Shown: one piece after another, positions 3,922-58,226 of the stretch | Position numbering within the stretch: position 1 is the first letter of the stretch | How the letters are laid out: each line of letters begins with the position of its first letter | NCBI GenBank assembly: GCA_016124735.1 | Contig: WGMZ01000024.1 | Span: forward strand, 1-64,000 | Reading direction: 5' to 3' | Length of the DNA: 64,000 nucleotides | Source: Bacteroidota bacterium | GTDB lineage: Bacteria > Bacteroidota > Bacteroidia > UBA8524 | Notes under the pieces: generated by a model | Database searches by the model: none | What the model saw: the letters and a program-made list of their open reading frames with translations, nothing else | Told to the model about the DNA's origin: nothing | Position numbers and translations under genes: made by a program

Positions 3922-3962
3922 AACAGCCCTAACTCTTCAATCCTTTTAATATCACAATTACA

Positions 3963-4256
3963 TTATTCATTTACTGAAGTTAAGTAGTGAAACATTTGCA
4001 TCGCAATAAGCGAGGCAATAATCAAAGCGATAGCTAATGCAAAAACAGATTTGGCAATTTGCATTTGTTTATTCCGTGCTAAGCTCCGTTTGAGGGCCTG
4101 GAATTCCTCCGGACTGGCATGCCTGTATTTGAGCATTTCTCTTTTGTTGGCATGCATCAGGGCAGGGTCGAGCCGGAAAAATCCACGCTTTCTGCGCATC
4201 GCTTCGTTTTCACGAATGCGTGCGTTCATGTCCGATGTATGTCCAGCGAAACTCAT
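3963..4256 (-). CDS. hypothetical small membrane-anchored protein
   Basis: 97 aa. Basic N-terminal region followed by a single C-terminal TM helix (VFALAIALIIASLIAMQMF). Confidence 0.35.
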   Translation of the reverse strand: MSFAGHTSDMNARIRENEAMRRKRGFFRLDPALMHANKREMLKYRHASPEEFQALKRSLARNKQMQIAKSVFALAIALIIASLIAMQMFHYLTSVNE

Positions 4257-4573
4257 CTTCGGTTGTCTATTCCTTCACCAGTTTATGCACCGCGCTCTTT
4301 TCTCCTGTATCAATGATTATAAGATACACGCTGGCAGGAGCATCCATATCCATTTGTGCCTCACGAATAGTGCTGAAGCTTTTGGAGGAAAAACGAAAAA
4401 CAGCAAATGGACATTGTGATAGTGGGACTTTGAGACTTTGTGATGAATTTGGCCGGGCAAATAACAACCGTGTCTCCTTCCGGCGTTAGCTGAGAAATCT
4501 CTGCGTCATCGCATTAAAAAATATTCCGCAAACTTGCTGAAACCCGATACCTGAAACCTGACTCCTGCTTTCC

Positions 4574-7127: not shown

Positions 7128-7136
7128 TTTTCGCTG

Positions 7137-7232
7137 TTCGAAGTTCGAAGTTCGATGTTCGACTTTAGATTTTCGACTTTAGATTTTCGACTTTAGATTT
7201 TCGACTCCTGTTTCCTGACTCCAGACTCTAGA
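7137..7232. repeat. tandem repeats (GTTCGAA x3-4, then a 14-nt unit CTTTAGATTTTCGA x3)
   Basis: Direct reading of the convergent intergenic region between the GNAT gene and the FAD oxidase gene. Confidence 0.75.
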
Positions 7233-7237
7233 CTTTC

Positions 7238-35943: not shown

Positions 35944-36363
35944 TCCTCCAGCATGGCTTCCGCACTCAATTGCCCCGGAGAAAAGCGGAATCCTTCGTAC
36001 AAGGCAATACCATAAAAGAGGATGTCCATCTGACTGAAATTTTCCCGCATAAATTCGAACATCATCCCCAAAAGAACCAGGTTGAAAGTTTCTAAGTATG
36101 AAACGCCAGCTTCGTATGAACGGCGGGGTTCTGGTCCTGTCTGTATTCTGCACGGCTGGCTTCAAAGTCAGCTATCTTTTGAGTCGGTCCGCAATCGATT
36201 CCAAGTTTTGTATCAAAAGATTGGTTGATCCCTACACTGCAAAATTCGAGGTGTTCTTTACGACTCATGATTCATTTGGTTCAAAAATCAAGATAGAAAT
36301 GATTTGAAATGCGTACGTAGTAAATGCAAAAAAAAGCCCCTGAAATGGCAGACAGGGACGCCA

Positions 36364-36400
36364 GTCTCTTGTCTCTCGTCTCTCGTCTCTTGTCTCTTCT
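36364..36400. repeat. heptamer tandem repeat (GTCTCTY x5)
   Basis: gtctcttgtctctcgtctctcgtctcttgtctcttc. Followed by a GACCCC-TTCG-GGGGTC tetraloop hairpin at 36406-36421. Confidence 0.8.
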
Positions 36401-36508
36401 TTTGGGCGACCCCTTCGGGGTCCAACTTCGCCAATCTCCGAACTCAAGCTTGATCTCAAACTGAACCTCAATTCTACCCCGTCAGGATTGTATAAAACGG
36501 CAGATTCT

Positions 36509-36635
36509 TGTCTCAATGTCTCAATGTCTCAAAGTCGCAAAGTCTCAATGTCGCAAAGTCTCAATGTCGCAAAGTCTCAATGTCTCAATGTCGCAAAGTC
36601 TCAATGTCTCAATGTCTCAATGTCGCAAAGTCTCT
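36509..36635. repeat. octamer tandem array (about 16 units, WGTCKCAA)
   Basis: Alternating TGTCTCAA / AGTCGCAA units. The track ORFs 36488..36778 are translations of this repeat. Confidence 0.85.
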
Positions 36636-36671
36636 CATCTTCCTACTCATGTACTCCCTACTCAAGTACTT

Positions 36672-41066: not shown

Positions 41067-42538
41067 TCTTTATTCGCTTCCATTAAAAAGTCATACAACA
41101 TATTTCCCACCGCATTCGCTCCGCGAAAATTCAGGTGGGTATAATCTTTATTGGCCAAAGGTTTTTCAGCTTCGGTCCATTCAATCATAGAGCCTTCTCC
41201 ACCCATGGCAGAATACAGATTCCAAAAAGCCACGCCTGTTTTTTTAGCCACTTTGTATTGGGTTTTCAGCACCCGGTAAACCGAAGGATCGCTTACCATT
41301 ACATCTCCTTTTTTGAATCCTTTGTCGGCTACTCCAATCAATAAGATGGAAGCTTGAGGGAAACATTTTTGATAATGCCGTACCACCCGGGTCATGGCAT
41401 GCTCGTACCAGCCATATTTCATCGTACTTGCACTAATCACATTGATGCCAAAGTGCAATACAATCAAATCCGGTTTCAGATAGGAATTAAATCCTTTGAG
41501 CATAGGGGTGGAGATGCGTGTTTGGGCCATTCCTGAATTTCCACGCAGGCTCAGGTTATCGAGAATGACGCCATTTTCGCTTTCCAAGCTGACTCCATAG
41601 AATAAGGTGTTGCCTGCCGAGTCTAATTGAATGCGCGCAAAATTGATCAGGGTGTCTTTGAGTAGAATCTGACTCACCAGGGAAGTATCATTCAAAGGAA
41701 AAGTTTGAGCCGGGTTATGGTTAAGACTCACCATAGCAATTGCCTTTTTCGAACCCTTGCCATAGAAGAGTCGCATTTGCTTCCATCCTTTTTTTCCTTT
41801 CGGTGCAGCAAAGCTGGCATACAGCGGACTTGAATTGCTGTCGGGCTCCTCAATCATGTATTCACCGTTGAGTCCGAACGGCGCCTTTTTCATCTTGGCA
41901 TTTTTCACCAGAGAAAAATATTCCCAGGGACCTCCAAATTTGTGGACCACAGTTCTGCGGAATCCTGCCGTGATTGAAATATATGGAACGAATCCTACGC
42001 CTGACCCGCCAAATAGCTTCTGGAATTTCGCACGAATGGTTTGGGTGATCAGATCGCCTTCAATCATCGAATCGCCCCAATAGGAGATCCGTACTTTTTT
42101 GCCCGGATCTTTTTTCAAAGCATTCAGCGCATCGAAGAATTTTCTCAGGTGGGCGAGGTTGGCTGTGTCGGGAATAACGGCCGAATCATTGGCAAACCAG
42201 GCTTCATCTACATAGGCCAATGGAGGTAAGCTGTCTGAAACGGTGGCAGTATCTGCCAGCAATTCGGTGCTGTCTGGTAAACTGTCCAGTTGATCGAACA
42301 CGGAGCTATCGATTGGTTCTGCAACCATGATTCCCGGATCATCCGTTTTTAAGTAATAGGTAATGAAATTGCTGTTCTTGAAATATTCGTTCAGGAAAGG
42401 AAGAAAGGGGTAGGCCCATTGCACCACCAATAGTATCAGGCAGGCGAGGAGAAGCACCAGATAGGATCGTACAACAATTCGTTGGCCCATGAGTTCCACA
42501 AAGGTATACGCCAGAGTCAGAAGCCCGAAAGAAGTCAT
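41063..42538 (-). CDS. SGNH/GDSL hydrolase-fold protein
   Basis: 491 aa. N-terminal TM. YWGDSMIEG block. 4-nt overlap with the downstream gene. Confidence 0.6.
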   Translation of the reverse strand: MTSFGLLTLAYTFVELMGQRIVVRSYLVLLLACLILLVVQWAYPFLPFLNEYFKNSNFITYYLKTDDPGIMVAEPIDSSVFDQLDSLPDSTELLADTATVSDSLPPLAYVDEAWFANDSAVIPDTANLAHLRKFFDALNALKKDPGKKVRISYWGDSMIEGDLITQTIRAKFQKLFGGSGVGFVPYISITAGFRRTVVHKFGGPWEYFSLVKNAKMKKAPFGLNGEYMIEEPDSNSSPLYASFAAPKGKKGWKQMRLFYGKGSKKAIAMVSLNHNPAQTFPLNDTSLVSQILLKDTLINFARIQLDSAGNTLFYGVSLESENGVILDNLSLRGNSGMAQTRISTPMLKGFNSYLKPDLIVLHFGINVISASTMKYGWYEHAMTRVVRHYQKCFPQASILLIGVADKGFKKGDVMVSDPSVYRVLKTQYKVAKKTGVAFWNLYSAMGGEGSMIEWTEAEKPLANKDYTHLNFRGANAVGNMLYDFLMEANKE

Positions 42539-42653
42539 TCACAAAATGTTAATAGCCTTTGTGCCCGGATTGTTTGCTTCCGGTATTCTGGTTTGGTAAC
42601 TTTGCCAAACCTTTTAAAACAACACCTGTTTTAGAATAATCAGTTTAAAATAT

Positions 42654-43298
42654 ATGACAGTATTAGTAGGAAAAAGGGCCCCTTATTTTGAGGCTGACGC
42701 CGTGGAGAACGGTGGTGATTTTGTAGAGAATTTTTCTCTGGCACAATACGAAGGAAAGAAACATGTGGTATTCTTTTTTTATCCATTGGATTTCACTTTT
42801 GTATGCCCAACAGAAATTATCGCATTTCAGAAGAGAATAAAAGAGTTTGAAGAACGTGGAACAGCGGTTGTAGGTTGTTCTATCGACTCCAAATTCACTC
42901 ATTGGGCCTGGTTAAATACCCCTCAAAACGATGGAGGAATACAAGGGGTTGAATTCCCATTGGTTGCTGATGTAAATAAGACCATTGCCAATAACTACGG
43001 TGTATTGGCCGGATACTACGATTACACCGAAGAAGGCCAGATGGTATTTATTGGCGATAATGGCAACGACGCAGTGGCTTACCGGGGATTGTTCCTGATC
43101 GACAAAGAAGGAATCGTACGTCACCAAATTGTGAACGACCTTCCGTTGGGACGTAGCATCGACGAAGCATTGCGCATGATCGACGCTCTTCAATATTTTG
43201 AGGAAAAAGGCGAAGTATGTCCGGCCGATTGGGAAAAAGGCAAAGACGGACTCGTTGATACCGCAGAAGGTATTGCATCTTATCTTTCCACTCACTAG
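42654..43298 (+). CDS. typical 2-Cys peroxiredoxin (AhpC/Tsa family)
   Basis: 214 aa. Peroxidatic Cys in FTFVCPTEI. Resolving Cys in EVCPADW. Confidence 0.9.
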   Translation: MTVLVGKRAPYFEADAVENGGDFVENFSLAQYEGKKHVVFFFYPLDFTFVCPTEIIAFQKRIKEFEERGTAVVGCSIDSKFTHWAWLNTPQNDGGIQGVEFPLVADVNKTIANNYGVLAGYYDYTEEGQMVFIGDNGNDAVAYRGLFLIDKEGIVRHQIVNDLPLGRSIDEALRMIDALQYFEEKGEVCPADWEKGKDGLVDTAEGIASYLSTH

Positions 43299-43346
43299 GA
43301 ACAGTCGACGGTCAATGGTCGATAGTCCTCAGTAAGAGTACAAATA

Positions 43347-43375
43347 ACTGACAAGACGCCTCGGGAAACCGGGGC
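43347..43375 (+). terminator. rho-independent terminator after the peroxiredoxin gene
   Basis: GCCTCGGGAAACCGGGGC hairpin followed by TTTTT. A second copy of the same element lies at 43568..43596. Confidence 0.5.
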
Positions 43376-43599
43376 TTTTTGGTTTATGGTTTATGGTTTA
43401 TTGTTTAGAGTTTTAGCGGTGTAACAGGATAGGATTTGTTGCAGGAATATATCTTTAACCCAGGTATGTACAGATGCTTTCGTTGGGATACAGAGTGATA
43501 ATTGCATCGCTCTAACACATATCGCTCAGGCCTTCCGGGCCGAGCGATTCCTGACAAGACGCCTCGGGAGACCGGGGCTTTTTGGTTTATGGTTTATAG

Positions 43600-43672
43600 T
43601 TTATTGTTTAGGGTGTCTTGTTTGTGGCGGATTGCATTATCCGGCAGCATCGCAATGAATTGCTTCCGGGGA
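43600..43672 (+). repeat. direct repeat flanking the TlpA-like cassette (left copy)
   Basis: GGTTTATAGTTTATTGTTTAGGGTGTCTTGTTTGTGGCGGATTGCATTATCCGGCAGCATCGCAATGAATTGC. The right copy is at 44945..45016. Confidence 0.7.
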
Positions 43673-43701
43673 TTATGTTTTTTGCCGGTAGTGAGTTGGA
43701 A

Positions 43702-44856
43702 CTAATTCTGTTTTTTTAATGCTTCAATTTCCATCAATAATTCAGGATTGATTTTATTGTGGTATCCCGGCTCAATATATTTCACAATACCGAAACGGTC
43801 GATTAGAATAAGTTCCGGGAAGAATTGTACCCGATACAAATTTTTAGCAGTGACCATATCGCTTTGCAATATGTCGTACCGTATGTCGTGCGAACGTGCA
43901 AAAGCATTCAAGAAGCTGTCATTTTGATTTATAACAGAGATTCCCAGAACCTGAGAATCATACCTTCGAATCAAACTGTCAAGTCGATTATTATTTGGAA
44001 TGCTGGCCACACATGGACCACAGCTAGTGTACCAAAAATCTAAAACCAAGGAAGATCTGCCCAATTGCAATATTGAGATGGAGTCACCACCTATATTTTT
44101 AAACATCAATGGAAAGAGGGTGTCGCCCACAGCAAGGCTTTTAGTGGATTCGGTCTGTGTAATTTGTTCTGGAAGAGTACTGGGATCGATATGATCTAGT
44201 ACTGCTGATTTCTTTTTTTCAAAAGAATCGATGCTTAAATAATTTAGTTTATAACAATCAGAAAAGTCTTGACCATTCCATTTCTCAGTTATTTCAAACC
44301 TGCATATATCATAGGTGGCAGAATCAATCCAGAGGTGCCTGAATCTGCTTGAAATGCGAAGGTTCAATCTTTTATCGACTTGATCAGGAAAATGAATTGT
44401 GAAGAGATAGCAACGACGTCCATTTATAAAGGTGTCTAGACGTGTAAGCGTTTTTTTATTTAGTCGAAATAGGAAAGGTTGGATGGCTAGATCATTTTCA
44501 TTCGATGGTAGAAATCCGAAGCTTTGGTTCTCAAGATTTTTTGTCGAATAATGGTGCAATTGCATGCGTGACTTCTCCAGACTATAATTCCAGGTAGTGT
44601 CTTTGTTTATTTTCGATAATTGATTGGTAAAGAGAAAATATTTGGTTTGGGCACTTTCATCGTACCAAATGATTAGGGAACTCGTATCCACATTGTATAC
44701 CCATGGGTGAATTCTTATTTCCTCAACCCGAATGGGTAAGTTTAACTTGTTATCATAATTTTTCGCGCATTTTTTGAGGATGACTTTTGAAGATTGGCCT
44801 GAAGTCAGAATAGGTGCTATAAGTACGAATTGAAAAACAAATCTGATAAGCTTCAT
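43702..44856 (-). CDS. TlpA/ResA-like thiol-disulfide oxidoreductase with N-terminal domain of unknown function
   Basis: 384 aa. Signal peptide. C-terminal thioredoxin-fold with WYTSCGPC active site. The gene is markedly AT-rich relative to its neighbours. Confidence 0.65.
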   Translation of the reverse strand: MKLIRFVFQFVLIAPILTSGQSSKVILKKCAKNYDNKLNLPIRVEEIRIHPWVYNVDTSSLIIWYDESAQTKYFLFTNQLSKINKDTTWNYSLEKSRMQLHHYSTKNLENQSFGFLPSNENDLAIQPFLFRLNKKTLTRLDTFINGRRCYLFTIHFPDQVDKRLNLRISSRFRHLWIDSATYDICRFEITEKWNGQDFSDCYKLNYLSIDSFEKKKSAVLDHIDPSTLPEQITQTESTKSLAVGDTLFPLMFKNIGGDSISILQLGRSSLVLDFWYTSCGPCVASIPNNNRLDSLIRRYDSQVLGISVINQNDSFLNAFARSHDIRYDILQSDMVTAKNLYRVQFFPELILIDRFGIVKYIEPGYHNKINPELLMEIEALKKQN

Positions 44857-44944
44857 GTACTCAAATATACATATAGTTCAATAGTGTTCATTTTATGGTT
44901 TTGCTACATGTTTTTTAATCTTAAAGCGTTGCGATGTTTTGGTT

Positions 44945-45016
44945 AATGGTTTATTGTCTAGGGTTTGTGGCGGATTGCATTATCCGGTAGCATCGCAATG
45001 CATTGCGATGCTACCG
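44945..45016 (+). repeat. direct repeat (right copy) containing a perfect 30-bp palindrome
   Basis: GGTTTATTGTCTAGGGTTTGTGGCGGATTGCATTATCCGGTAGCATCGCAATG|CATTGCGATGCTACC. The palindrome lies at 44987..45016. Confidence 0.7.
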
Positions 45017-45552
45017 GGGTTGCCGGCCGTTTTTGGTTTATTGTTTATGGTTTAAGGTTGAGCGTTTTTGCAGGGTAAATGGATGCGGATAGTGCATGTT
45101 TAAACCGGCAGCAGAAAATCCTTCTATTGGTAATAAATTCAATTAATTTTATCCGGCCAGGCGAACCTGAAAATGATTGAACATCTCTAAAACGGTCAAC
45201 CTTATTTAGGGATGTTCATGGTACTGGCGTCTGACGTCTGTTATCTGTCGTTTGGTGTAAGGTATTGGGCAATAGGTTAAAATTGATAAACTTAGGATTG
45301 GATTACCTAAGTTATTAACTTGAGTCAGTTCGAGCTTGTCGAGAACTGAAAGTGAATTAGCAGATCACTTCTCGACAGGCTCGAAGTGACTCGCACTGCT
45401 TTTCCAGTTCCTCTTAAACCCAAACTCTTAAATCCTCGCACTTGTGTCTGGTATCTGGTGTCTGTCGTCGGACATCTTAAAACACCACCTCCGCCAGATC
45501 GCGGCGAAGTAAACTTTTTAGTTTTTGACAATTCGTTGACAACTTGTACATT

Positions 45553-45585
45553 TTCCTGACAGGTTTTAAATAATCCCTGTGCTAC
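45553..45585 (+). promoter_or_regulatory. candidate Bacteroidota-type promoter for recA (TTG ... TAnnTTTG)
   Basis: TActTTTG at 45578-45585 sits about 22 nt upstream of the recA ATG, with TTG about 23 nt further upstream. Two TTGACAA direct repeats lie just upstream at 45524-45547. Confidence 0.25.
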
Positions 45586-45607
45586 TTTTGGTGAAAGAAT
45601 TTGAACT

Positions 45608-46645
45608 ATGGCAACTGCGGATAACAAAGAAAAGTTGAAAGCGCTTCAACTTACAATAGATAAACTGGAAAAGAACTACGGAAAAGGGGTCGTGATGCGT
45701 ATGTCGGATGATGCGAAGGTGGAAGGGATAAAAACAATATCTACAGGTTCCCTGGGCCTGGATATTGCCTTGGGTGTGGGAGGATTTCCTACCGGAAGAA
45801 TTATTGAAATATATGGTCCGGAATCCTCTGGTAAAACAACATTAGCCATGCATACGATTGCCGAAGCCCAGAAAAACGGAGGAATGGCTGCTTTTATTGA
45901 TGCGGAACACGCGTTTGACCGGTATTATGCGGAAAAATTGGGAATCAATACAGAGAACCTCCTGATAGCACAACCGGATGATGGAGAACAGGCTTTGGAA
46001 ATCGCAGAGAACCTGATTCGTTCGGGTGCAATTGATATCATTGTAATTGACTCTGTAGCAGCCCTTGTTCCCCGGGCTGAACTGGAAGGGGAGATGGGCG
46101 AATCAAAAATGGGACTTCAGGCCCGTTTGATGTCTCAGGCATTGAGAAAACTCACGGGGGCAATCAATAAAACCAATTGTATTTGCATATTTATCAATCA
46201 ACTGCGTGAGAAAATCGGGGTGATGTTCGGTAATCCGGAAACCACCACCGGAGGAAATGCGCTTAAATTTTATGCCTCAGTTCGTTTGGATATTCGTCGC
46301 ATCGGACAACTTAAAGACGGACTCGATGTGGTAGGTAACCGAACCAAAGTAAAGGTAGTGAAGAACAAAGTAGCTCCCCCATTCCGTGTCGTAGAATTTG
46401 ATATCATGTACGGGGCTGGTATATCCAAAGTGGGCGAAATCGTTGACCTCGGTGTGGATTTTGGAATTGTGAAGAAGAGCGGGTCCTGGTTCTCTTATAA
46501 CGATACAAAGCTCGGACAGGGCCGCGATTCAGTAAAAGAGTTGCTTCGCGATAACCCAGAATTAGCCGAAGAAATTGAACGTCAGGTGAAAGAATTAGCT
46601 ATGACTGGAAAAGTCGAGCAAAAGGTGGAAGTTGGTGAAGACTAG
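45608..46645 (+). CDS. recA: recombinase RecA
   Basis: 345 aa. Walker [14 protein letters not shown]. Canonical RecA core. Confidence 0.97.
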
Positions 46646-46710: not shown

Positions 46711-48321
46711 CTAATGCTGGAGAATGAACTTAAAGCTTTCTTGACGTTCCAGCTCAGCATCCTCCAGTCTCAGGAAATAAATACCATTTGGAAGTGATGC
46801 AACCTCCACTGTAAAATCGCCCTGTGAGGAGCCGGATTGAATAGTTTGTCCGTTCGAATTGTAGATCGAATAGCGGACAAGCCGTTCATCTGAGATTAAT
46901 TCAATCTGCAGGTGATTGTTGGCGGGATTGGGATATATATTGGCTAGTCGTATTTCGTCTTTCGGTAGCACAAAGTCAACCCCACTTCCAGATTTCTTTC
47001 CCTGTGAAAAGCAATTTGCGGGGATTTGAGGTTTGGTAAACCACCGGTTAAAAATATCATCGACATCATTTTGAAGTTTTTGAACACTGCCAATAGCTCC
47101 ACCTGTGTTTGTTCGGGCGTAGGCAAATAGCAATAAAAGGCGAAAAGTATCTCCTTGCATCAGACTATCCTGGCCTGTAATACCCATCATCCGGTAATCG
47201 TCTGGTTGGAAACGTGGGTCATTGTCCATGCTCCATCCATTTTGACCGGCTCCCGGCATTCCGGTAAAATGATATTGAGAGTGAGTGCCAGCAGGAAATC
47301 CAGGGGCATTGATTTCCATGCTATCGCCCGAAGTGGACAAACCATATAATGCATTCCTGAATTCAATTTCATTGTTGGGAGTACGAAAGTCACTACTGTC
47401 TGAATTTTGCATCATACATGAAGCACACAAGGGTTGATTAATAAAAACTGTTGCGAATGCAGGAGGATTTAAGCCATAACCCGTAATTCCTTCGTCATCA
47501 TTGTCTCCGTTATAAACAAAGGTCATGTTTCGACTCGTATCTGTAGCAACATAGTCATCACTATAGTTTCCCAAATCATAGTCTGAAAATACTCCAACTC
47601 TAAATTGTCTTAAGTCCTGATTCTGACTAATTATTTTGTATTGAACAAAGACATAATCATTGATTTTGTCATTGGTTGCAAATGCATATGCTTGTGCCTG
47701 GATTTGTATACCTAATGGTTTTGATTTACTCAATGCATGTGGTACCATGTCATGGTAATAAAAAAGCAAAGATTGATCCCCATAGACAAATGGATAATCC
47801 TGGTCTTTTGGATTGTAATACCCATCGTGATTCACGTCTACATAAGGGGCAAGCCTTACGGTATCTCCTTTATAAACATAGTATGTTGGCCAATCTTTTA
47901 TATCCTGAGTAATATTTGAGGTGTCTAGGTTGATTTCTTGTATATCCGTTCTTGATAGATTAAATATTCGTTGATCTAAAATTGGCGTAAAACCCAAGCC
48001 TGCGCCAGGGGGAAGTACACCTTGACCGAAATCTGTTCCCTTTTGATGATACAAGTCGACAGAAATTAATGTATCCCCATTGCTATCGATTGCATGCAAC
48101 CAAAGTGTTGCCATAAAAATTGGGGACTTTTTAATATCACCACTACCAGCGACAACTTTTGGAACATTATATTGAGAAGTACCGTTCATATCCCAAAATA
48201 AACTTCCGTTAGAAACAATACGGGCACTTACATTATTGACATCTAAATTAGTCTGTGCCTGTGCAATAAGTTGGATTGAAAGGCAGAGGAACACCCAGCA
48301 AATAAGTAATCTCCGATTCAT
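46711..48321 (-). CDS. secreted T9SS cargo protein, hypothetical
   Basis: About 536 aa from MNRRLLICWVFLCLSIQLIAQAQ. C-terminal sorting domain (IYPNPANNHL...GIYFLRL). Confidence 0.6.
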   Translation of the reverse strand: MNRRLLICWVFLCLSIQLIAQAQTNLDVNNVSARIVSNGSLFWDMNGTSQYNVPKVVAGSGDIKKSPIFMATLWLHAIDSNGDTLISVDLYHQKGTDFGQGVLPPGAGLGFTPILDQRIFNLSRTDIQEINLDTSNITQDIKDWPTYYVYKGDTVRLAPYVDVNHDGYYNPKDQDYPFVYGDQSLLFYYHDMVPHALSKSKPLGIQIQAQAYAFATNDKINDYVFVQYKIISQNQDLRQFRVGVFSDYDLGNYSDDYVATDTSRNMTFVYNGDNDDEGITGYGLNPPAFATVFINQPLCASCMMQNSDSSDFRTPNNEIEFRNALYGLSTSGDSMEINAPGFPAGTHSQYHFTGMPGAGQNGWSMDNDPRFQPDDYRMMGITGQDSLMQGDTFRLLLLFAYARTNTGGAIGSVQKLQNDVDDIFNRWFTKPQIPANCFSQGKKSGSGVDFVLPKDEIRLANIYPNPANNHLQIELISDERLVRYSIYNSNGQTIQSGSSQGDFTVEVASLPNGIYFLRLEDAELERQESFKFILQH

Positions 48322-48363
48322 GCTCCGAAAATACACGTAGATTGGAGATTTAAGAAGAAAAAA

Positions 48364-51503: not shown

Positions 51504-52025
51504 TTAATAAACGTAATAAGGTGAAATCATCACATAAACCATCACACCGGTTACCGCCACATACAACCAGATCGGGTAGGTTATCCTGGCGAGTTTTTTA
51601 TGGCGGTCGAATTGCTCACTCAATGCCCTGACATAGGTTATTAGCACCATTGGAATGATGATGATACTTAACAGAATATGGCTGGCCAGAATAGATTGAT
51701 AAAATCCTTTCATGAAACCGGTACCTCCGTAATGCGTTGTGTCGCTGGTTATATGGTAAGCAACATACATAAGCAGAAACAGAGAAGAGAGTATGATATT
51801 CGTCTTCATCAGACGTTCGTGCAATTTTCTTTTTCCCTTACGAATTGCTGTAACAGCTATAACGAGTAAAATGGCTGTCAATCCGTTGATGCTTGCGTAA
51901 ATGGGGGGCAGGAAGCTGAGATCAACTCCTGGAATTTTTAATTGAAACAATGCGGCAACAGCAAGGGGAATAATAACGGAAAGAGCAATAATTCCCTTCT
52001 TATACTTCAATTTAGTTTCTTGCAT
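51504..52025 (-). CDS. DUF420 family membrane protein (caa3-oxidase associated)
   Basis: 173 aa, 4 TM. Conserved His-containing helices (YHITSD, ASHILL). Confidence 0.55.
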   Translation of the reverse strand: MQETKLKYKKGIIALSVIIPLAVAALFQLKIPGVDLSFLPPIYASINGLTAILLVIAVTAIRKGKRKLHERLMKTNIILSSLFLLMYVAYHITSDTTHYGGTGFMKGFYQSILASHILLSIIIIPMVLITYVRALSEQFDRHKKLARITYPIWLYVAVTGVMVYVMISPYYVY

Positions 52026-52662
52026 GGTATTCTACTACGAGGGCCTTGATATCATCTGACAGACGACGCATTTCATTAAAATCGGTTGCTTTGTAAAATC
52101 CGCGAATGCGAAAATCTTTGTCAATCAAAACCGCCATATCGCTATGGATAAATGCAGTTTCCAGCGGAGTTTCCACGCTTGCAAGCAGGTAATCGTATTC
52201 TGCGGCACTGTACAGCATTTGTTTGCTTCCGGTTGCCAGGTACCAGCGTTTAGGATTGGCTCCCAGATCGTATCCGTATTTCGCTAATTCCGGAACCGAA
52301 TCCCTTTTGGGGTCTACGGTCATGGAAACAAAGCGGATATCTGGAGATTCTTTGTATTTGTTGTAGACAAACTGAAGGTTGCTCATCATCGTGGGACAGA
52401 TATCCGGGCAATGGGTGAAAAAGAAATTCGCCACATAAATTTTGCCCTGTAGATCTGACTTGCTGAAAGAATCGCCTTCCTGGTCTATAAATGAAAAATC
52501 GGAGATGGTATGATATACCGTATCTCCGATTTTGTTATCGTAGTATCGCTCACCGTAAATGGCCAATGGAGAGGAGACAATCTCGCCATCCTTCAATAAA
52601 AAAAGCCATAATGCTGGAATCGCAAGGATTGCCAAAGCGATAATAAATCCGTATTTCTTCAT
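52012..52662 (-). CDS. SCO1/SenC copper chaperone
   Basis: 216 aa. N-terminal TM. CxxxCP motif (FTHCPDICPT). Thioredoxin fold. Confidence 0.85.
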   Translation of the reverse strand: MKKYGFIIALAILAIPALWLFLLKDGEIVSSPLAIYGERYYDNKIGDTVYHTISDFSFIDQEGDSFSKSDLQGKIYVANFFFTHCPDICPTMMSNLQFVYNKYKESPDIRFVSMTVDPKRDSVPELAKYGYDLGANPKRWYLATGSKQMLYSAAEYDYLLASVETPLETAFIHSDMAVLIDKDFRIRGFYKATDFNEMRRLSDDIKALVVEYHARN

Positions 52663-52665
52663 TCT

Positions 52666-53016
52666 TTATATTGTGCTCCAGAAGTTGCCTTCATAAAGCA
52701 GTCCGAATATCAATCCAAGGATAAAAAGAACAGGGACGATAATGGACAAAGCCAGGTTCAATCTTTCATGTTTCATGTGCATGAAGTAACCAACAATGAG
52801 GTATGCCTTCACGATTCCGAACACCACGAAGATGATGTTTCTGAACATGGTTGGGTTCATAGAAAAGTAAAGGATGATATCGAGAATGGTGATCACAGTC
52901 AACCATCCGAATATCTTCCAAATTTCTTTGGTTCCGTGGCTGGCGCCAAGGTATAGCATCTCCTGATTGTTTTCGTACATCAGGGTTTCGTTATCGGTAT
53001 TTGCAGTATGTGCCAT
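52666..53016 (-). CDS. cytochrome c oxidase subunit IV (prokaryotic CoxIV family)
   Basis: 116 aa, 3 TM. GYFMHMKHE motif. Confidence 0.6.
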   Translation of the reverse strand: MAHTANTDNETLMYENNQEMLYLGASHGTKEIWKIFGWLTVITILDIILYFSMNPTMFRNIIFVVFGIVKAYLIVGYFMHMKHERLNLALSIIVPVLFILGLIFGLLYEGNFWSTI

Positions 53017-53035
53017 GTTTATTTTGGGTAATAGG

Positions 53036-53797
53036 TTAGATCAGATAGAAGAAAGTAAATACGAATACCCATACCAGATCAACAAAGTGCCAGTAGAGTC
53101 CAACTTTCTCCACCATTTCATAGTGGCCGCGTTTCTCGTAAGTTCCTTTTAATACATTGATATAAATAATCACGTTCAACACCACTCCACTGAATACGTG
53201 GAATCCGTGGAATCCGGTCACGATAAAGAAAAGTGCCGAGAAAACACCAGGTCCGGCCTGGCGTAGGTTATCGTGCCATTCATAATGTCCACCAACATGC
53301 AAGGTTTTGGCGTACTCCAGTCCGGCTGCTGAAAGCGAGAAATGATTACCATGCAAGGTGGCACCGTCGCCAATAAACTGAGTCCATTCCCAGGCCTGGC
53401 AGCTCAAAAAGGCCAGACCACCTAAGATGGTCAACAACATGTATTTAGCTACTTCTTTTTTCGCCATTCGATGTCCTGCTTCAACTGCCAATACCATGGT
53501 AACGGAGGAGAAGATGAGGATAAATGTCATCAAACTCACGAAGAATAAAGGCAGGTGAATATGATGCATGAATGGGAAGTGATTGAACACCATATCCGGC
53601 ATAGGCCATGGGGTGTCTACGTTTCCGAAGAAACTAAAGCGTTCTGCTCCGTATGAAATCAGCAGGGATGAGAAGGTAAATGCGTCGGATAGCAAAAAGA
53701 TCCACATCATTAACTTACCATAGCTGACATTAAACGGAGAGACACCGCCTCTCCATACAGATCCGGAATTGTTCGATGCTACTGGGTGTGTTGACAT
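53036..53797 (-). CDS. cytochrome c oxidase subunit III
   Basis: 253 aa, multi-TM heme-copper oxidase subunit III fold. Confidence 0.75.
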   Translation of the reverse strand: MSTHPVASNNSGSVWRGGVSPFNVSYGKLMMWIFLLSDAFTFSSLLISYGAERFSFFGNVDTPWPMPDMVFNHFPFMHHIHLPLFFVSLMTFILIFSSVTMVLAVEAGHRMAKKEVAKYMLLTILGGLAFLSCQAWEWTQFIGDGATLHGNHFSLSAAGLEYAKTLHVGGHYEWHDNLRQAGPGVFSALFFIVTGFHGFHVFSGVVLNVIIYINVLKGTYEKRGHYEMVEKVGLYWHFVDLVWVFVFTFFYLI

Positions 53798-53807
53798 TCC
53801 TTGTTTA

Positions 53808-54395
53808 TTAGCGGTTCAAAAATAAAAACAAATACAAATAAATCCAGAGTAAACCCATGAAGTGCCAATAGGTGGCCGCCATGGTAATAGTGCGCATACT
53901 CTTTTTATGAATTTCTAACTTAAAAGCTTTGTGGGTAGCGCGAATCAGCGCAATCCATCCTCCAAATAAATGGAGAAAGTGAAAGCCGGTGATGGCATAA
54001 AAGAATGAAGACGCCACATCATCTCCCGAAAAGAAGAGGTTGTTGTCGACCAGGACTTTATATCCCATAAACTGACTGATACCAAATCCAACTCCCAGGA
54101 TAAGGGTGCTGAACAAGGCTACTTTTAATTGGATAATTTCATCTCTTTTGGCAGCGAAATAGGCCCACTGCATGGTAATTGAACTCAGAATTACAATTAC
54201 CGTTGAATAGATGAATTGTTGCGGTATTAAAAACGCATTCCAGTTGCCCTCGGCTCTTCTGACAATATAGGCGGAAGTCAGAGCGGCAAATAACATGGCC
54301 GATCCGATAATAGCCAACCAGAGGTTGAACTTCTTTGGATCGAAGATGTAATTCTTTTCATCGGTTCGCGTTTGTGCTGCACTCATCATACTCAT
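53808..54395 (-). CDS. cytochrome c oxidase subunit III-like (short form)
   Basis: 195 aa. GFHFLHLFGG ... ATYWHFMGLLW. Second CoxIII-family gene, typical of Bacteroidota caa3 clusters. Confidence 0.7.
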   Translation of the reverse strand: MSMMSAAQTRTDEKNYIFDPKKFNLWLAIIGSAMLFAALTSAYIVRRAEGNWNAFLIPQQFIYSTVIVILSSITMQWAYFAAKRDEIIQLKVALFSTLILGVGFGISQFMGYKVLVDNNLFFSGDDVASSFFYAITGFHFLHLFGGWIALIRATHKAFKLEIHKKSMRTITMAATYWHFMGLLWIYLYLFLFLNR

Positions 54396-55327
54396 CAGAT
54401 TTTATCGATTACGAACGAAACCAGTACCACAGGCAAATAAAGGAAAGATGCAAACATGAGCACCTTGGCGTCTTTGTCGGAGCAGGACCGGTAGAGTTTA
54501 ATTGCATAATAAAGGAATACCATGGCAGCCGTTGCGGAAACAAATCCGGAAGCCAGTCCGGAAATTCCCAAGCTGAAGGGCAGGAATCCCATGGGGATCA
54601 AGACAAAGGTATACCACATCATTTGACGTGCAGAACGTTTCCCGCGGCCTTCAAAAGAAGGAAGCAAACGATAGCCCGCACGTTTATAATCTTCATCCAA
54701 TATCCATGCAATGGCCCAAAAATGAGGGAATTGCCAGAAGAATTGTATTGCAAACAAAGCCAAAGCAATGCTGTCAATGGCGCCTGTTACCGCAACATAA
54801 CCCAACATGGGAGGAATGGCGCCCGGGAATGCTCCAACGAATACTGCTATAGGAGATATCCTCTTTAATGGCGTATAGAAAAAGGCATAGGATACAAGTG
54901 AAGCCAGTGCAAGCCATCCGCTCAAAGGATTAAGGGTAAGACTCAGTATGCTCACTCCTGCGATTCCCAATACGAGGCAAAATAATGCAGCTTCTACTAC
55001 ACTCATGCGTCCTGTGGCAATTGGACGGTTGGCCGTGCGGTGCATCAGTTTATCGTAGTTCTTCTCAATAATTTGATTGATACCATTGGAACTACCTACC
55101 ACAAGAAATCCACCCAATACCAACCAGAACAAATCCATTAAATGGGTTGTGGGTTGAAAGGCCAACAGAAAACCCATGGCCGCAGAAAACACTACGGTAA
55201 AGGTCAGTCTCATTTTAATGAGCTGACTGTAATCGCTCAATTTTGCTTTGAGCGAAAAGGTTTCTGTTCTATTTAATTCGTTTGTGATCATCTCACATTT
55301 ATTCTTAAAGGGCTTCCTGAGAAGCAA
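54395..55327 (-). CDS. ctaB: protoheme IX farnesyltransferase (heme O synthase)
   Basis: UbiA-family. GINQIIEKNYDKLMHRTANRPIATG. The true start may be the internal Met at 55291, which would avoid an overlap with ctaA. Confidence 0.85.
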   Translation of the reverse strand: MLLRKPFKNKCEMITNELNRTETFSLKAKLSDYSQLIKMRLTFTVVFSAAMGFLLAFQPTTHLMDLFWLVLGGFLVVGSSNGINQIIEKNYDKLMHRTANRPIATGRMSVVEAALFCLVLGIAGVSILSLTLNPLSGWLALASLVSYAFFYTPLKRISPIAVFVGAFPGAIPPMLGYVAVTGAIDSIALALFAIQFFWQFPHFWAIAWILDEDYKRAGYRLLPSFEGRGKRSARQMMWYTFVLIPMGFLPFSLGISGLASGFVSATAAMVFLYYAIKLYRSCSDKDAKVLMFASFLYLPVVLVSFVIDKI

Positions 55328-56267
55328 TCTTTCTGTTTAATACCATCCACAAGTAAAACCATCCGCCGGAAATTAATGTTCCGAACAATATATGGCTCAT
55401 TTGTGCAATGGCGGGCAATTCCATCCATCTATTGGCGATTCCACTGATTATCTGAATAGCAGTGCAGAGCAAGGTTGCTGTTAGCACGCGTTTCATGATT
55501 TTTTCACTTTTGAAGCTTCGGTAACCCATAAAGGCGAGAAGCATACTCAATGCAAAGACCAATACCGATAAGACGATATGCCCGGTCAGTAAAGAGCCTG
55601 CATAAGCAATCCAATCAGGAGCCAGGTGCAACAACATTACTTCATCTACTCGTTCGCGCACCTGAGTGCCGGAAGTGATTTGGATGAGAGTAATGAGCAA
55701 GGCCAGCATACTCAGATTACGCAAAGTGATTTTATGGGATATGGCATGATGCAATCGATGCCGACGAAAAACTGACAGCATAACAAGTCCTACAACGAGC
55801 AGGGCAATGAGCATGTGGATGGTGACCATCCAACCTGCCAGATTCTTATCTACCACTACTTTTCCAATCCATCCCTGGAATCCAACCAACAAGAAAGAAA
55901 GAACTGCATATGCGGTAATTCTGGGCTCTGTCTTTCTGAATTGAAAGGAAGAAACCATGGTTATCGCAATAAAAATCCCGATCAGAACCCCGACAAGTCG
56001 GTTTACATATTCTGTCCAGGTGTGAACCACATTAAACTCTGCCACTGGTTTTCCAGGCGATGCGAAACGGGTTCGATAATCTTCGGGCAACTCGGATACA
56101 TCCGTGGGTGGAACCCATTGGTCAAAGCATTTGGGCCAATCGGGGCATCCCATTCCGGAGCCTGTTACGCGGACCCAACCGCCAACGAAGATTAGAAAGA
56201 AGATGGAGTAAACGGTTAAGAATCCGAATCTTCTGAAAAAGGCTTCTGAATACAGCTTCTTAATCAT
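55305..56267 (-). CDS. ctaA: heme A synthase (COX15/CtaA)
   Basis: 320 aa, 8 TM. CPDWPKC motif. Conserved His pairs. Confidence 0.8.
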   Translation of the reverse strand: MIKKLYSEAFFRRFGFLTVYSIFFLIFVGGWVRVTGSGMGCPDWPKCFDQWVPPTDVSELPEDYRTRFASPGKPVAEFNVVHTWTEYVNRLVGVLIGIFIAITMVSSFQFRKTEPRITAYAVLSFLLVGFQGWIGKVVVDKNLAGWMVTIHMLIALLVVGLVMLSVFRRHRLHHAISHKITLRNLSMLALLITLIQITSGTQVRERVDEVMLLHLAPDWIAYAGSLLTGHIVLSVLVFALSMLLAFMGYRSFKSEKIMKRVLTATLLCTAIQIISGIANRWMELPAIAQMSHILFGTLISGGWFYLWMVLNRKIASQEAL

Positions 56268-56282
56268 TTACTCCCGCTTCTC

Positions 56283-58190
56283 TTATCTGGCGAAACCGAA
56301 CAATTTGCGCAAAGCGGCAAATGAAACGGTTGGGCCGTCTTCTCCTTCTGAGGCCGGAACTTCTTCGTGTTTCGGCTTAGCCGGAGCTTTTTTCGGTGCA
56401 GGTTCCACAGTTTGTCCTTCATCAGGAACGTTTTGTGGAATGAAGTCTTCTTCACTGTCAGGGCGGCTGTAATCGTATGGCCAACGGTAAACGGTTGGGA
56501 TCTCACCCGGCCAGTTTCCGTGAATACGCTCAACAGGAGCAGTCCATTCCAGAGTATTGGATCTCCATGGATTCTGTGGCGATTTTTTACCACGGAAAAT
56601 GGAGTGGAAGAAGTTCCAAAGGAAGAGTACCTGTGCCAATCCACCAACGATGGCGGCAATGGTAATTAATACGTTTACATCCATCCATACGCCAAATTCA
56701 GGCAATACGGTAAACTGGTAATAACGACGTGGAACACCGGCAATTCCCATAAAGTGCATTGGGAAGAATACCAGGTATGCAGAAGCAAAAGTCAACCAGA
56801 AATGAATATAACCGAGGGTATTGTTCATGTAGCGTCCGTACATTCTTGGGAACCAGTGGTAAATACCAGCCAACATACCAAAGATGGCAGCAGAACCCAT
56901 TACCAGGTGGAAGTGAGCCACTACAAAATAAGTATCGTGTAAGTTGATATCGAGGGTTGCATTACCCAGGAAGATACCGGTCAATCCACCAGAGATGAAA
57001 AGAGATACCAATCCGATTGCAAACAACATTCCCGGCGTAAATTGGATGTTTCCTTTCCAAAGGGTAGCGAGGTAATTAAATGTTTTTACAGCCGACGGCA
57101 CCGCAATAATCAAGGTGATAACCATGAATATTTCTCCAAGGAATGGATTCATACCCGTGATAAACATGTGGTGACCCCAAACCAGGAAGGAAAGGAAGGC
57201 AATACCCAAAAGCGAAATAATCATCGCGGTGTAACCAAAGATTGGCTTACGTGCATTGGTCGCAATTACTTCAGAGGTAATACCCAATGCAGGCATCAGG
57301 ATGATATATACTTCAGGGTGACCCAGGAACCAGAATAAGTGCTGGAACAAGATTGGGCTACCGCCTGTATTATTCAACGCACCAGCGCCGTTTACCCAAA
57401 TATCGGATAAATAGAAACTGGTACCGAAGCTACGGTCGAAAATCAATAGCAAACCACCACCAAGCAATACCGGGAAGGCCAAAAGACCCAAAACAGCGGT
57501 GAAGAAGAAAGCCCAGATAGTCAAAGGCATTCTGTTCATTGACATGCCTTTGGTACGCATGTTCAGGATGGTCGAGATATAGTTGATACCTCCCAGCAAT
57601 GAGGAAGCAATAAACAGGATAATCGCAACGAGCCATAAAGTCATGCCTGCGCCCGATCCGGGAATCGCTTCAGGCAATGCCGACAGCGGAGGATAAATGG
57701 TCCATCCACCGGAAGCAGGTCCTGTTTCAAGGAACAGGGAGGCAAGCAATACCACAGATGAACAGAAGAAGAACCAGTAAGACAACATGTTCATGAATGG
57801 GGAAGCCATATCACGAGCACCTACCTGCAATGGAATCAATAAGTTCGAAAAGGTACCACTTAAACCGGCGGTTAATACGTAGAATACCATGATGGTACCG
57901 TGAATCGTAATAAGCGACAGGTAAAAATTCGGATCGAGTTTTCCATCCGGAGCCCATTTACCTAAAAGGGTATGAAGGAATCCGAAATGTTCGTCCGGCC
58001 ATGCTAACTGCAGTCTGAATAAAAGCGACATGACCATTCCGATTACCCCCATGATTATCCCTGTAATCAGGAATTGCTTGGAGATCATTTTGTGGTCCAT
58101 ACTGAAGACATACTTCCTGATGAAGCTTTCTTCGTGATGGTGATCGTGGGCATCGTGATGTAGTTCTGCGCTATGTGTTGCGTTTGCCAT
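56283..58190 (-). CDS. ctaD: cytochrome c oxidase subunit I
   Basis: 635 aa. Canonical heme-copper oxidase subunit I helices and His ligands (GHPEVYIL, HHMF). Confidence 0.95.
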   Translation of the reverse strand: MANATHSAELHHDAHDHHHEESFIRKYVFSMDHKMISKQFLITGIIMGVIGMVMSLLFRLQLAWPDEHFGFLHTLLGKWAPDGKLDPNFYLSLITIHGTIMVFYVLTAGLSGTFSNLLIPLQVGARDMASPFMNMLSYWFFFCSSVVLLASLFLETGPASGGWTIYPPLSALPEAIPGSGAGMTLWLVAIILFIASSLLGGINYISTILNMRTKGMSMNRMPLTIWAFFFTAVLGLLAFPVLLGGGLLLIFDRSFGTSFYLSDIWVNGAGALNNTGGSPILFQHLFWFLGHPEVYIILMPALGITSEVIATNARKPIFGYTAMIISLLGIAFLSFLVWGHHMFITGMNPFLGEIFMVITLIIAVPSAVKTFNYLATLWKGNIQFTPGMLFAIGLVSLFISGGLTGIFLGNATLDINLHDTYFVVAHFHLVMGSAAIFGMLAGIYHWFPRMYGRYMNNTLGYIHFWLTFASAYLVFFPMHFMGIAGVPRRYYQFTVLPEFGVWMDVNVLITIAAIVGGLAQVLFLWNFFHSIFRGKKSPQNPWRSNTLEWTAPVERIHGNWPGEIPTVYRWPYDYSRPDSEEDFIPQNVPDEGQTVEPAPKKAPAKPKHEEVPASEGEDGPTVSFAALRKLFGFAR

Positions 58191-58226
58191 GCTTATTGGT
58201 ATTGATGCGTGTTAAAATTCTTTTTC

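Follow-up and report, generated by a model that had tools for sequence, protein, structure and literature searches.

Is an AT-rich gene that lies between direct repeats a foreign cassette, or an old resident of a site that is prone to recombination? The 64,000-nt stretch of DNA analysed here (the window) raises this question directly beside recA (45608–46645, plus strand; Pfam RecA 2e-137). On the other side lies prx (42654–43298, plus strand), which encodes a typical 2-Cys peroxiredoxin of the AhpC/Prx type (214 aa; Pfam AhpC-TSA 1.1e-33 plus 1-cysPrx_C, NCBIfam peroxiredoxin C 1.1e-71). Between the two, a tlpA-like gene of 384 aa runs on the minus strand (43702–44856), and an earlier note on this DNA had read the gene and its repeats as a cassette-like insertion or a recombination hotspot carrying a redox gene next to a peroxidase.

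The gene product was analysed with Pfam, NCBIfam, a PDB sequence search, an AF2 model, Foldseek and an alignment of six homologues. Pfam matches it to Redoxin (29.7 bits, cut-off 26.6) and AhpC-TSA (28.9 bits, cut-off 26), and the motif WYTSCGPC places C279-G-P-C282 within a thioredoxin fold that occupies the C-terminal 140 aa. In the alignment C279, P281, C282 and P347, the last at the expected cis-proline position, are invariant, and G280 is replaced by F in one homologue. By its fold, CxxC motif and cis-proline, the protein is a TlpA/ResA-like thiol-disulfide oxidoreductase; it resembles TlpA, ResA and DsbE (CcmG) also in its export-like N-terminus, and its sequence and fold matches are to ResA, DsbE, StoA, FetE and Bacteroides thiol-disulfide oxidoreductases (PDB profile search, 3kcm at 7.7e-10; Foldseek on the AF2 model, top matches FetE, DsbE and ResA, and also RseB/LolA). 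Unlike TlpA and ResA, it scores far below the curated NCBIfam cut-offs, which place it outside both the TlpA (Bradyrhizobium) and ResA (Bacillus) equivalogs (ResA subfamily 7.5e-10, 39 bits vs 170; TlpA equivalog 20.6 bits vs 230), and it carries an extra N-terminal domain of ~230 aa. This domain is tentatively LolA/RseB-like, as judged from a weak AF2 model that was built from six sequences only (pLDDT 58.5). The N-terminus is hydrophobic with an invariant Q21-S22 after SG, which fits the 'Q-rule' of Bacteroidota signal peptidase I, and the protein appears to carry an N-terminal export signal. Finally, TATATTTG (44862–44869, minus strand), 5 nt upstream of the ATG, matches the Bacteroidota -7 promoter box TAnnTTTG and is a candidate promoter element of the gene. 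The idea of a redox partnership with the peroxiredoxin was rejected as unlikely, because the predicted compartments differ (the tlpA-like protein apparently exported, Prx of the cytoplasmic 2-Cys type), the two genes are convergent, and relatives keep prx without the tlpA-like gene.

The gene belongs to what is, by its homologues, a narrow family confined to one uncultured Bacteroidota clade. A search of 5.8 billion proteins gave 5 full-length homologues, and a second, of 1.84 billion representatives, gave only 3 clusters with E < 1e-160; similar proteins of ~380–400 aa can be matched over their whole length at E ~1e-20. Each of the six homologues whose context can be read adjoins recA, and five of them are located between recA and prx, all with the same orientation (the window, L007, L001, L012 and L016); in L017 an AdoMet decarboxylase gene takes the place of prx. 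When the locus is compared among relatives, as had been proposed, the gene proves patchy: it is present in six loci including the window and absent from four, namely the ingroup relatives L009, L005 and L019 and the outgroup L013. In the empty slots of L009 and L019 the prx terminator stands 4–20 nt from a conserved block upstream of recA, and in L009 prx is ended by the same hairpin as in the window. The gene thus shows a presence/absence polymorphism, and relatives that lack it have the empty site intact. Around it, prx retains 89–93% amino acid identity across all relatives, and the conserved recA upstream block (CTCCGCCA ... TTTTTGACAATTCGTTGACAACTTGT ... TACTTTTG; 45489–45607, plus strand), which was recognized by comparison of relatives, is 82% identical to that of L009 and alignable in all relatives.

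Within this slot the content varies, which supports the part of the earlier interpretation that spoke of a recombination hotspot. L007 has an IS110 element, found in this relative only, together with its own 64-nt hairpin-bearing direct repeats around the tlpA-like gene, the IS110 lying beside the repeat equivalent to that of the window. The same structure is present in three separate contigs (L007, L008 and L018). L005, a near relative of L007, has no tlpA-like gene and retains one copy of the L007 flanking repeat, which resembles copy 2 over its entire length. The L005 junction is not a textbook crossover inside the repeat, and its alignment neither proves nor excludes a repeat-mediated deletion. 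The repeats occupy the same relative positions around the gene in the window and in L007, with spacings of 1343 and 1317 nt, and both contain perfect palindromes, of 34 nt in the window and 20 nt in L007, whose arms are separated by zero or 2 nt. The notion of one conserved element flanking the gene across lineages was nevertheless dropped, since the window repeats align to those of L007/L005 no better than shuffled sequences do. No flanking repeats of this kind were found in L001 and L012 by scanning, or in L016 and L017 when read by eye.

The other part of that interpretation, a foreign cassette, is not supported. The AT-richness itself is real: with 36.9% GC the tlpA-like gene ranks last among 46 ORFs (mean 44.3%, z = -2.8), and its GC3 is likewise 36.9% (z = -2.2). 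However, every orthologue is lower in GC than its own locus and flanks, so that low GC is a trait of the family, and codon usage, the check that had been called for, ranks the gene 13 of 46 and gives no sign of an outlier. The family occurs beside recA only. TlpA identities fall into the same three groups as those of the flanking genes (59–68% within L001/L012/L016/L017, 29–38% between groups), and neither relationships conflicting with the host's nor unrelated contexts are apparent in these comparisons. A Pfam scan of the 46 long ORFs in the 64-kb window matched none of them to an integrase, transposase or recombinase family. The dN/dS of the gene is 0.11–0.20, vs 0.01–0.06 for recA, prx, GDSL491 and FTHFS, which indicates a functional yet weakly constrained gene; its dS is 1.3–2.1 vs 0.5–1.0 for the neighbours, which could reflect older alleles, though saturation and codon bias can also yield a raised dS. 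The weak constraint and an amino acid composition poor in GARP residues (z = -1.8) would account for the AT-richness. Taken together, the matching groups, the dN/dS, the AT-richness of all orthologues, the ordinary codon usage and the absence of mobility genes from the scanned ORFs fit vertical inheritance, and an old, fast-evolving resident of the prx–recA slot rather than a newly inserted foreign cassette.

What, then, are the repeats? All of the elements below lie on the plus strand, and the positions reported for them earlier deviate by no more than about 10 nt. Module A (43348–43411; terminator scan and repeat-family search) begins with the predicted intrinsic terminator of prx, made up of the hairpin GCCTCGGGARACCGGGGC and T5, and continues with (GGTTTAT)n and TGTTTAGRGT; here the hairpin at 43358–43375 and T5 are followed by (GGTTTAT)3 and TGTTTAGAGT. 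The observation that terminator and GGTTTAT motif occur twice holds, as a second copy, A', lies at 43551–43614 (terminator scan, repeat search and self-BLAST). The two copies are 95% identical over 64 nt, differing at 3 of 64 positions within unlike flanks, and this DNA identity implies recent copies or copies kept alike by conversion. Both were scored as terminators (7-bp stem with 6 G-C pairs, then T5) and, with a G+C-rich stem-loop directly followed by a T-run, are predicted intrinsic terminators. They resemble the tandem or duplicated terminators that lie behind highly expressed genes in that G+C-rich hairpins and T-runs are stacked on the prx/recA strand, between genes that are convergent or adjacent. 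The locus differs from such terminators in that the duplicates are 95% identical in DNA and one pair brackets a whole gene. A degenerate third module at 45002–45065 is 67% identical to A over 64 nt; within it A'' (45030–45065; repeat search) comprises T5 and GGTTTAT-type heptamers, a degenerate copy of the tail of A. At two mismatches or fewer, GGTTTATGGTTTAT has 11 matches, every one of them in the locus, against 0.68 expected.

Between A and A' lies a unique spacer of 139 nt, U1 (43412–43550), which was examined by self-BLAST, against the relatives' loci, with Rfam and by folding. It holds two hairpins, at about 43493–43512 and 43513–43540, and has no second copy in the 64-kb window, no match in the relatives and no Rfam hit. 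As a gene it was rejected: no convincing Bacteroidota-type promoter, credible ORF or homologue was found.

The direct repeats that bracket the tlpA-like gene are likewise real. Repeat B (43594–43690; repeat search and alignment) lies directly downstream of the tlpA-like stop codon, and B' (44937–45040; repeat search, palindrome scan, alignment and fold) lies upstream of the gene. Without gaps, 43594–43663 and 44937–45006 match over 70 nt at 83% identity; a 44-nt core (43620–43663 and 44963–45006) is 95% identical (42/44), and the likeness runs on to about 43690 and 45040 if a 5–7-nt gap is allowed. B' has the order heptamers, core, a perfect 34-nt palindrome (17+17 nt, 44984–45017; the longest of the window), GGTTGCCGGCCG and T5. 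Its hairpin (dG -39.3 kcal/mol, z = -3.9, then U5) looks like a plus-strand terminator, although its T-run begins 12 nt past the palindrome stem. B has the order heptamers, core GTTTGTGGCGGATTGCATTATCCGG, left palindrome arm, shortened right arm and T6; the right arm has suffered a deletion of 5–7 nt, the fold is weak (z = -0.8), and the copy is degenerate as a terminator.

The repeats are local. The B core has 2 matches in the window against 0.00 expected, and A, B and U1 have zero copies outside the locus in 64 kb (self-BLAST, word size 7, E up to 1). The search for further flanking repeats that had been suggested was extended to two public collections, in which the core gave one chance match, in the planctomycete Stieleria, among 185,579 species genomes (the source MAG not among them) and no matches in JGI metagenomes. 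An Rfam scan of 42400–45800 at E up to 1 left the repeats unmatched; its sole match was a sub-threshold chance one (27 bits vs a gathering score of 65.6) to the inverted repeat at 45235–45390. As an observation apart, the small repeat GAGCTTGTCGA is common to the window and several L019 sites.

Heptamers are not restricted to these modules. Directly after the prx stop codon, sequence reading reveals the plus-strand array GTCGACG GTCAATG GTCGATA GTCCTCA (43304–43331); nearly all relatives have an array at the same position, six of them with the unit GACCATR. Two arrays of the GTCT type (45226–45257 and 45443–45477, plus strand; sequence reading, repeat search and comparison with relatives) enclose an inverted repeat with 28-nt arms (45322–45392), and the whole of 45226–45477 belongs to DNA that is extra relative to L009. 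In total the window has six strict period-7 or period-8 arrays, all intergenic, and shuffled sequences have none. With at least three tandem copies of a 5–11-nt unit and enrichment outside genes, these arrays are, by their sequence, long simple-sequence repeats (LSSRs). Heptamer repeats of this sort form a described class (PMC4679880, citing Mrazek 2007); like other LSSR/heptanucleotide repeats, cyanobacterial STRR and TAACTGA repeats, those of the window have 7–8-nt units in 3–16 copies and are strictly intergenic, and relatives differ in both the number of copies and the sequence of the unit. Unlike them, there is no single genome-wide heptamer and many different units occur at different sites, and in the locus the heptamers directly follow terminator T-runs.

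We can now weigh how the gene came to lie between such repeats. One explanation is that the gene and one hairpin-bearing repeat form an excisable and insertable cassette, with recurrent gain and loss of the gene at a single site of the chromosome. Integration would take place at the repeat, by a site-specific recombinase whose gene lies elsewhere or by a Campbell-type event through homology; it would leave direct repeats on either side, and excision would leave a solo repeat. The patchy presence in two clades (window vs L009; L007 vs L005 and L019) speaks for it, as do palindromic flanking direct repeats at equal relative positions in two lineages, the solo copy in L005, a TlpA identity far below that of the neighbours with a higher dS, and the 34-nt perfect palindrome, whose length is that of a lox- or FRT-type site. 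The arrangement also recalls integron cassettes (attC), with a single gene between palindromic repeats and an empty site with one repeat in a relative, but it lacks an integrase, a cassette array and, as judged by reading the sequence, the R''/L''...L'/R' attC architecture or GTTRRRY core; the gene apparently has its own promoter, and the repeat is absent elsewhere in the searched data. We consider this explanation unlikely, given a scan of 46 long ORFs in 64 kb without a recombinase, a repeat with no further copy in the window or the two scanned collections, a gene family never found away from recA, four gene-bearing relatives (L001, L012, L016 and L017) without such flanking repeats, TlpA groups that agree with the flanking-gene groups, a candidate promoter box belonging to the gene, and a palindrome whose spacer is symmetric, so that the site would have no polarity. 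That the hairpin repeats are recombination sites for excision and re-integration at a fixed site by recA, as a minimal single-gene cassette with no adjacent recombinase and a parallel origin from unrelated repeats in two lineages, is in our judgment quite improbable. The observation of paired but unrelated repeats in the window and L007 nonetheless counts against the reading that we favour below, in that a recurring insertion/excision mechanism would explain their like positions and unlike sequences more naturally than coincidence.

Alternatively, the repeats could be operator sites at which a dimeric transcription factor co-regulates the tlpA-like gene, prx read-through or recA, two copies staying alike because they bind the same protein. 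Perfect palindromes with zero or 2-nt spacers, copies that are alike within a genome and unlike between genomes, and the retention of the hairpin upstream of recA in L005 in spite of the missing gene would all suit this role. There is little to expect of it, however, as the right arm of B is partly lost, B' stands upstream of both genes, about 130–160 nt before the start codon of the tlpA-like gene and about 590 nt before recA, and the element is absent from L009, L019, L001, L012 and L016, which retain recA and prx. None of the published Bacteroidetes SOS boxes (CTAA-N5-TTAG, GGA-N5-TCC; PMC8565304) occurs in 43299–45607. Slimmer still is the chance that the repeats (B/B' and A/A') belong to a dispersed set of extragenic palindromes of the REP/BIME or MITE type, two copies of which happen to flank the gene. 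The repeats are intergenic and contain hairpins, as REP/BIME sequences do, an IS110 element has inserted right beside the corresponding repeat of L007, Logan contigs break at the hairpins, and GAGCTTGTCGA recurs in L019. The IS110 family targets REP-like sequences. Unlike REP/BIME, though, the repeats are not dispersed: there are two copies only, both in the locus, with none beyond it in 64 kb (word size 7, E up to 1) and no matches in public collections, and the L007 palindrome is confined to two flanking sites among 15 loci. Finally, part of the structure, especially the A-U1-A' duplication, might be a misassembly, considering that the source is a metagenome-assembled genome and that the second assembly (Logan contig L003, run SRR10063242) spans only about 43513–45013, so not the A-U1-A' duplication, and stops inside hairpins. 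This is most improbable: A and A' show 3 mismatches in 64 positions and have unlike flanks, the independent assembler reproduces the order A'-B-gene-B', and the analogous L007 structure recurs in three contigs.

The reading that we favour, and hold to be slightly more probable than not, is that locally duplicated plus-strand terminator/hairpin/heptamer modules surround a resident gene and render it deletion-prone. As part of this reading, and with the same modest confidence, the gene would encode a TlpA/ResA-like thiol-disulfide oxidoreductase that is exported and has an additional, possibly LolA/RseB-like domain at its N-terminus. The gene would be lineage-specific and vertically inherited, subject to weak purifying selection and evolving at several times the rate of its neighbours. 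The repeats would represent not the ends of a mobile element but local duplicates of plus-strand terminator-like modules that share one plan, a G+C-rich hairpin, a T-run and then slippage-prone GGTTTAT heptamers, with A, A' and B placed downstream of prx and B' and A'' between the tlpA-like gene and recA. They may have arisen by unequal recombination or slippage at heptamer arrays, which the genome carries in many intergenic regions, and their putative role would be to halt prx read-through before it enters the convergent tlpA-like gene in antisense and reaches recA. The nested direct repeats B/B' and A/A'/A'' could permit deletion of the gene by recombination, and such repeat-mediated deletion would explain the relatives without the gene, one of which has a solo repeat. 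Simple parsimony does not decide the matter, as one gain with two to three losses is about as costly as three gains and the outgroup L013 is without the gene.

These observations carry the lesson that an AT-rich gene between direct repeats is insufficient to call a horizontally acquired cassette. If the gene did excise and re-insert at its repeats, the locus would be an unusually simple cassette system, which we consider unlikely on present evidence. What the relatives suggest instead is a long-resident gene under weak constraint, set in unstable intergenic DNA. The locus provides an example of how nested direct repeats can be built from short tandem heptamers together with duplicated hairpins of terminators, and of a coincidence between such repeats and recurrent loss of a gene among relatives. 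A third point that it illustrates is that, in this uncultured lineage, the slot beside recA forms a small variable region.

The prx gene (42654–43298, plus strand) is followed directly after its stop codon by a short heptamer array (43304–43331, plus strand) and then by module A (43348–43411, plus strand), in which the hairpin GCCTCGGGAAACCGGGGC precedes T5, three copies of GGTTTAT, and TGTTTAGAGT. Beyond a unique 139-nt spacer, U1 (43412–43550), the whole of module A recurs with 95% identity as A′ (43551–43614, plus strand), which continues straight into repeat B (43594–43690, plus strand), ending 11 nt from the stop codon of the tlpA-like gene (43702–44856, minus strand, 384 aa). Repeat B′ (44937–45040, plus strand) is located ∼80 nt upstream of the tlpA-like start, and 3′ of it lies A″, comprising T5 and further GGTTTAT-type heptamers with 67% identity to A. 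B and B′ align over 70 ungapped nt at 83% identity, with 42/44 matches in a 44-nt core; if a 5–7-nt gap is allowed, the similarity extends through CCGGGG up to the T-run. The longest palindrome of the window, a perfect 17 + 17 nt (44984–45017), lies inside B′, and part of its right arm is deleted in B. Motif counts at the locus are far beyond chance (11 observed vs 0.68 expected, and 2 vs 0.00 expected), no module has a further copy elsewhere in the 64-kb window, and the A′-to-B′ stretch is recovered in a second assembly, the Logan contig of run SRR10063242. These results confirm the earlier note's observation of an AT-rich gene among direct repeats and duplicated terminator modules.

The hairpin-plus-T-run modules A, A′, B, and B′ all share the orientation of prx and recA. 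A terminator scan predicts A and A′ to be canonical terminators, B′ has a folding energy of −39.3 kcal/mol (z = −3.9) with U5 after it, and fold analysis shows B to be degenerate as such a module. Two stable hairpins are present in U1, for which the relatives offer no homologue and Rfam no match; it lacks a credible ORF and might represent either a small RNA or a remnant. Logan contigs (both ends of L003, which is the SRR10063242 contig, and one end each of L009 and L006) tend to stop within or beside palindromic hairpins and repeats here, and such elements of the prx–recA intergenic region appear to break de Bruijn-graph assemblies.

Related loci were found by homology to the tlpA-like gene or the neighboring GDSL esterase, or through the conserved recA promoter; flank-gene identity sorts them into three groups plus outgroups. 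In group 1 the gene is present in the window and missing from L009. Group 2 comprises L007, which has the gene and an IS110 element, L005 and L019, which lack the gene, and L010, which is rearranged and uninformative; L019 was assigned by intergenic sequence, and L008 and L018 duplicate the L007 sequence. All members of group 3 (L001, L012, L016 with RecA at 99%, and L017, placed by TlpA sequence only) carry the gene, with an AdoMet decarboxylase gene instead of prx in L017. Of the outgroups, L013 lacks the gene and the L015 contig stops after prx. Wherever present, the gene adjoins recA in the same orientation. TlpA identity tracks the three groups, at 59–68% inside group 3 (where RecA compares at 99% and GDSL491 at 91%) and 29–38% across groups. 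In the closest pairs dN/dS is 0.11–0.20 for the tlpA-like gene vs 0.01–0.06 for recA, prx, GDSL491, and FTHFS, values which indicate a functional, weakly constrained gene that is evolving several times faster than its neighbors. Both patterns fit descent in place. By simple parsimony one gain with 2–3 losses costs about the same as three gains; we favor loss, since three gains would have to share one site and one orientation and to come from otherwise unknown donors. A gap of 4–20 nt separates the prx terminator from the conserved block upstream of recA in L009 and L019, an arrangement that may equally reflect deletion followed by erosion to two functional elements or a site that was never occupied.

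The earlier note listed AT-richness among the features suggesting an insertion. None of the 46 ORFs in the window is lower in GC than the gene, at 36.9% (z = −2.8; GC3 z = −2.2), and amino-acid composition explains part of the deficit (GARP fraction z = −1.8). In distance from pooled usage, its synonymous codons rank only 13/46, and the orthologues in L001, L007, L012, and L016 are likewise 2–6 GC points below their own loci. Low GC appears to be a trait of the family rather than a sign of recent arrival.

Residues 250–367 of the protein match Redoxin and AhpC-TSA above the Pfam cut-offs; the best NCBIfam match is ResA, far below its cut-off, and PDB sequence and fold searches match ResA, DsbE, StoA, FetE, and several Bacteroides thiol-disulfide oxidoreductases. 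In the alignment of homologues, the CGPC motif and a proline downstream of it are kept (G is F in one member). The hydrophobic N-terminus followed by an invariant Q-S suggests, on inspection, that the protein is exported. The first 230 residues form a helix plus antiparallel-sheet domain in a low-confidence model (pLDDT 58.5), with weak Foldseek matches to RseB, LolA, and LolB. When 1.84 billion representatives were scanned in full with HMMER, only three clusters of the narrow family emerged; the many ∼380–400-aa proteins matching full-length at ∼1e-20 argue that the two-domain layout itself is common. A functional tie to the neighboring, cytoplasmic peroxiredoxin is unlikely. An aa3-type cytochrome c oxidase cluster (51504–59918; COX1, COX2 with a cytochrome c domain, COX3, COX4, CtaA, CtaB, SCO1/SenC, DUF420) lies 7 kb away. 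Some bacteria use TlpA proteins to reduce Sco and CoxB, and by analogy with TlpA of Bradyrhizobium a link to this cluster is conceivable, although relatives that retain the cluster without the gene count against it.

Six strict 7–8-nt tandem arrays occur in the window, all intergenic, vs none in shuffles, and others are present in relatives; they are a general trait of the intergenic DNA of this genome and belong to a described slippage-prone repeat class (PMC4679880). A conserved string in L019, TTTTT(T)GTTTAGAGT 3′ of the prx terminator, suggests an origin for the window array, in which GGTTTAT seems to have multiplied between the T-run and GTTTAGAGT. Nearly all relatives have an array right after the prx stop codon. 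The unit GACCATR (3–5 copies) is shared by six genomes, L009, L001, L012, L019, L017, where it sits at the place where prx would end, and the outgroup L013; the window, L016, and L005 have other units at the same place, and L007 merely a short GCGACGA/ATCGACA remnant. Conservation of position while the unit turns over points to some role for the array in the 3′ UTR of prx. GTCT-type arrays (45226–45257 and 45443–45477) flank a 185-nt segment holding an inverted repeat with 28-nt arms (45322–45392), the core of which, GAGCTTGTCGA, recurs in L019 as four tandem 25-nt copies 3′ of prx (1152–1240) and once more 6 kb away (7391). Insertion of a small, clade-wide repeat element into an array may account for the segment. 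Elsewhere, 36361–36670 is a large intergenic array of (GTCTCTT)x5 then (TGTCTCAA)x16, and (GTTCGAA)x4 plus (GATTTTCGACTTTA)x4 occupy the entire gap between two convergent genes at 7128–7237.

Group 2 bears on the possibility of a true excisable cassette, which we regard as unlikely. In L007 direct repeats (64 nt, 80% identical, each holding the palindrome GTACGCGAT-TC-ATCGCGTAC) bracket the gene at a spacing of 1317 nt (1343 nt in the window). One copy of this repeat also occurs in L005, a near relative lacking the gene, where it sits between recA and the prx terminator, so that L007 and L005 look like an occupied and an empty site. The parallel is weakened on three counts: the L005 copy resembles the L007 upstream copy from end to end, which does not make for a clean crossover junction; sequence comparison detects no similarity between the window and L007 repeats; and flanking repeats are absent from L001 and L012 (scan) and L016 (read from sequence). 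A Pfam scan finds no integrase or transposase among the 46 long ORFs of the window, and no attC-like architecture is present at the locus. Separately, the DNA separating the tlpA-like gene from recA in L007 carries a transposase gene of the IS110 family (3351–4379; also L008 and L018), within a GTCTGG octamer array that runs on at both sides.

That the repeats are operator sites is improbable; the published Bacteroidetes SOS boxes, CTAA-N5-TTAG and GGA-N5-TCC (PMC8565304), are both missing from 43299–45607. Membership in a dispersed REP-like family is slightly more improbable still, with no dispersed copies in the window, two public collections, or, for the L007 palindrome, the collected relative loci, and no Rfam family at the locus; an assembly artefact is very improbable. 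On balance, the most probable explanation is that terminator and heptamer modules were duplicated locally around a resident, fast-evolving gene. From the anatomy, they would have been copied by unequal recombination at heptamer arrays, and the nested direct repeats would make the gene easy to delete. The modules may also serve as stacked terminators between prx, presumably a highly expressed gene, and its neighbors recA and the convergent tlpA-like gene. Of the earlier proposal, the recombination hotspot is thus supported, as the slot varies among relatives, while the inserted cassette is not.

Upstream of recA, the block TTTTTGACAnnnCGTTGACAACTTGT (45520–45550), a double TTGACA, is conserved clade-wide, with its last few bases varying in L012 and L016. 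On the opposite side of recA, a T9SS-tailed 541-aa protein (46711–48336) is also highly variable, with 39–45% identity in L001, L007, L019, and L020, absence from L005, and small ORFs in its place in L012 and L016. Thus recA lies between two fast-changing slots.
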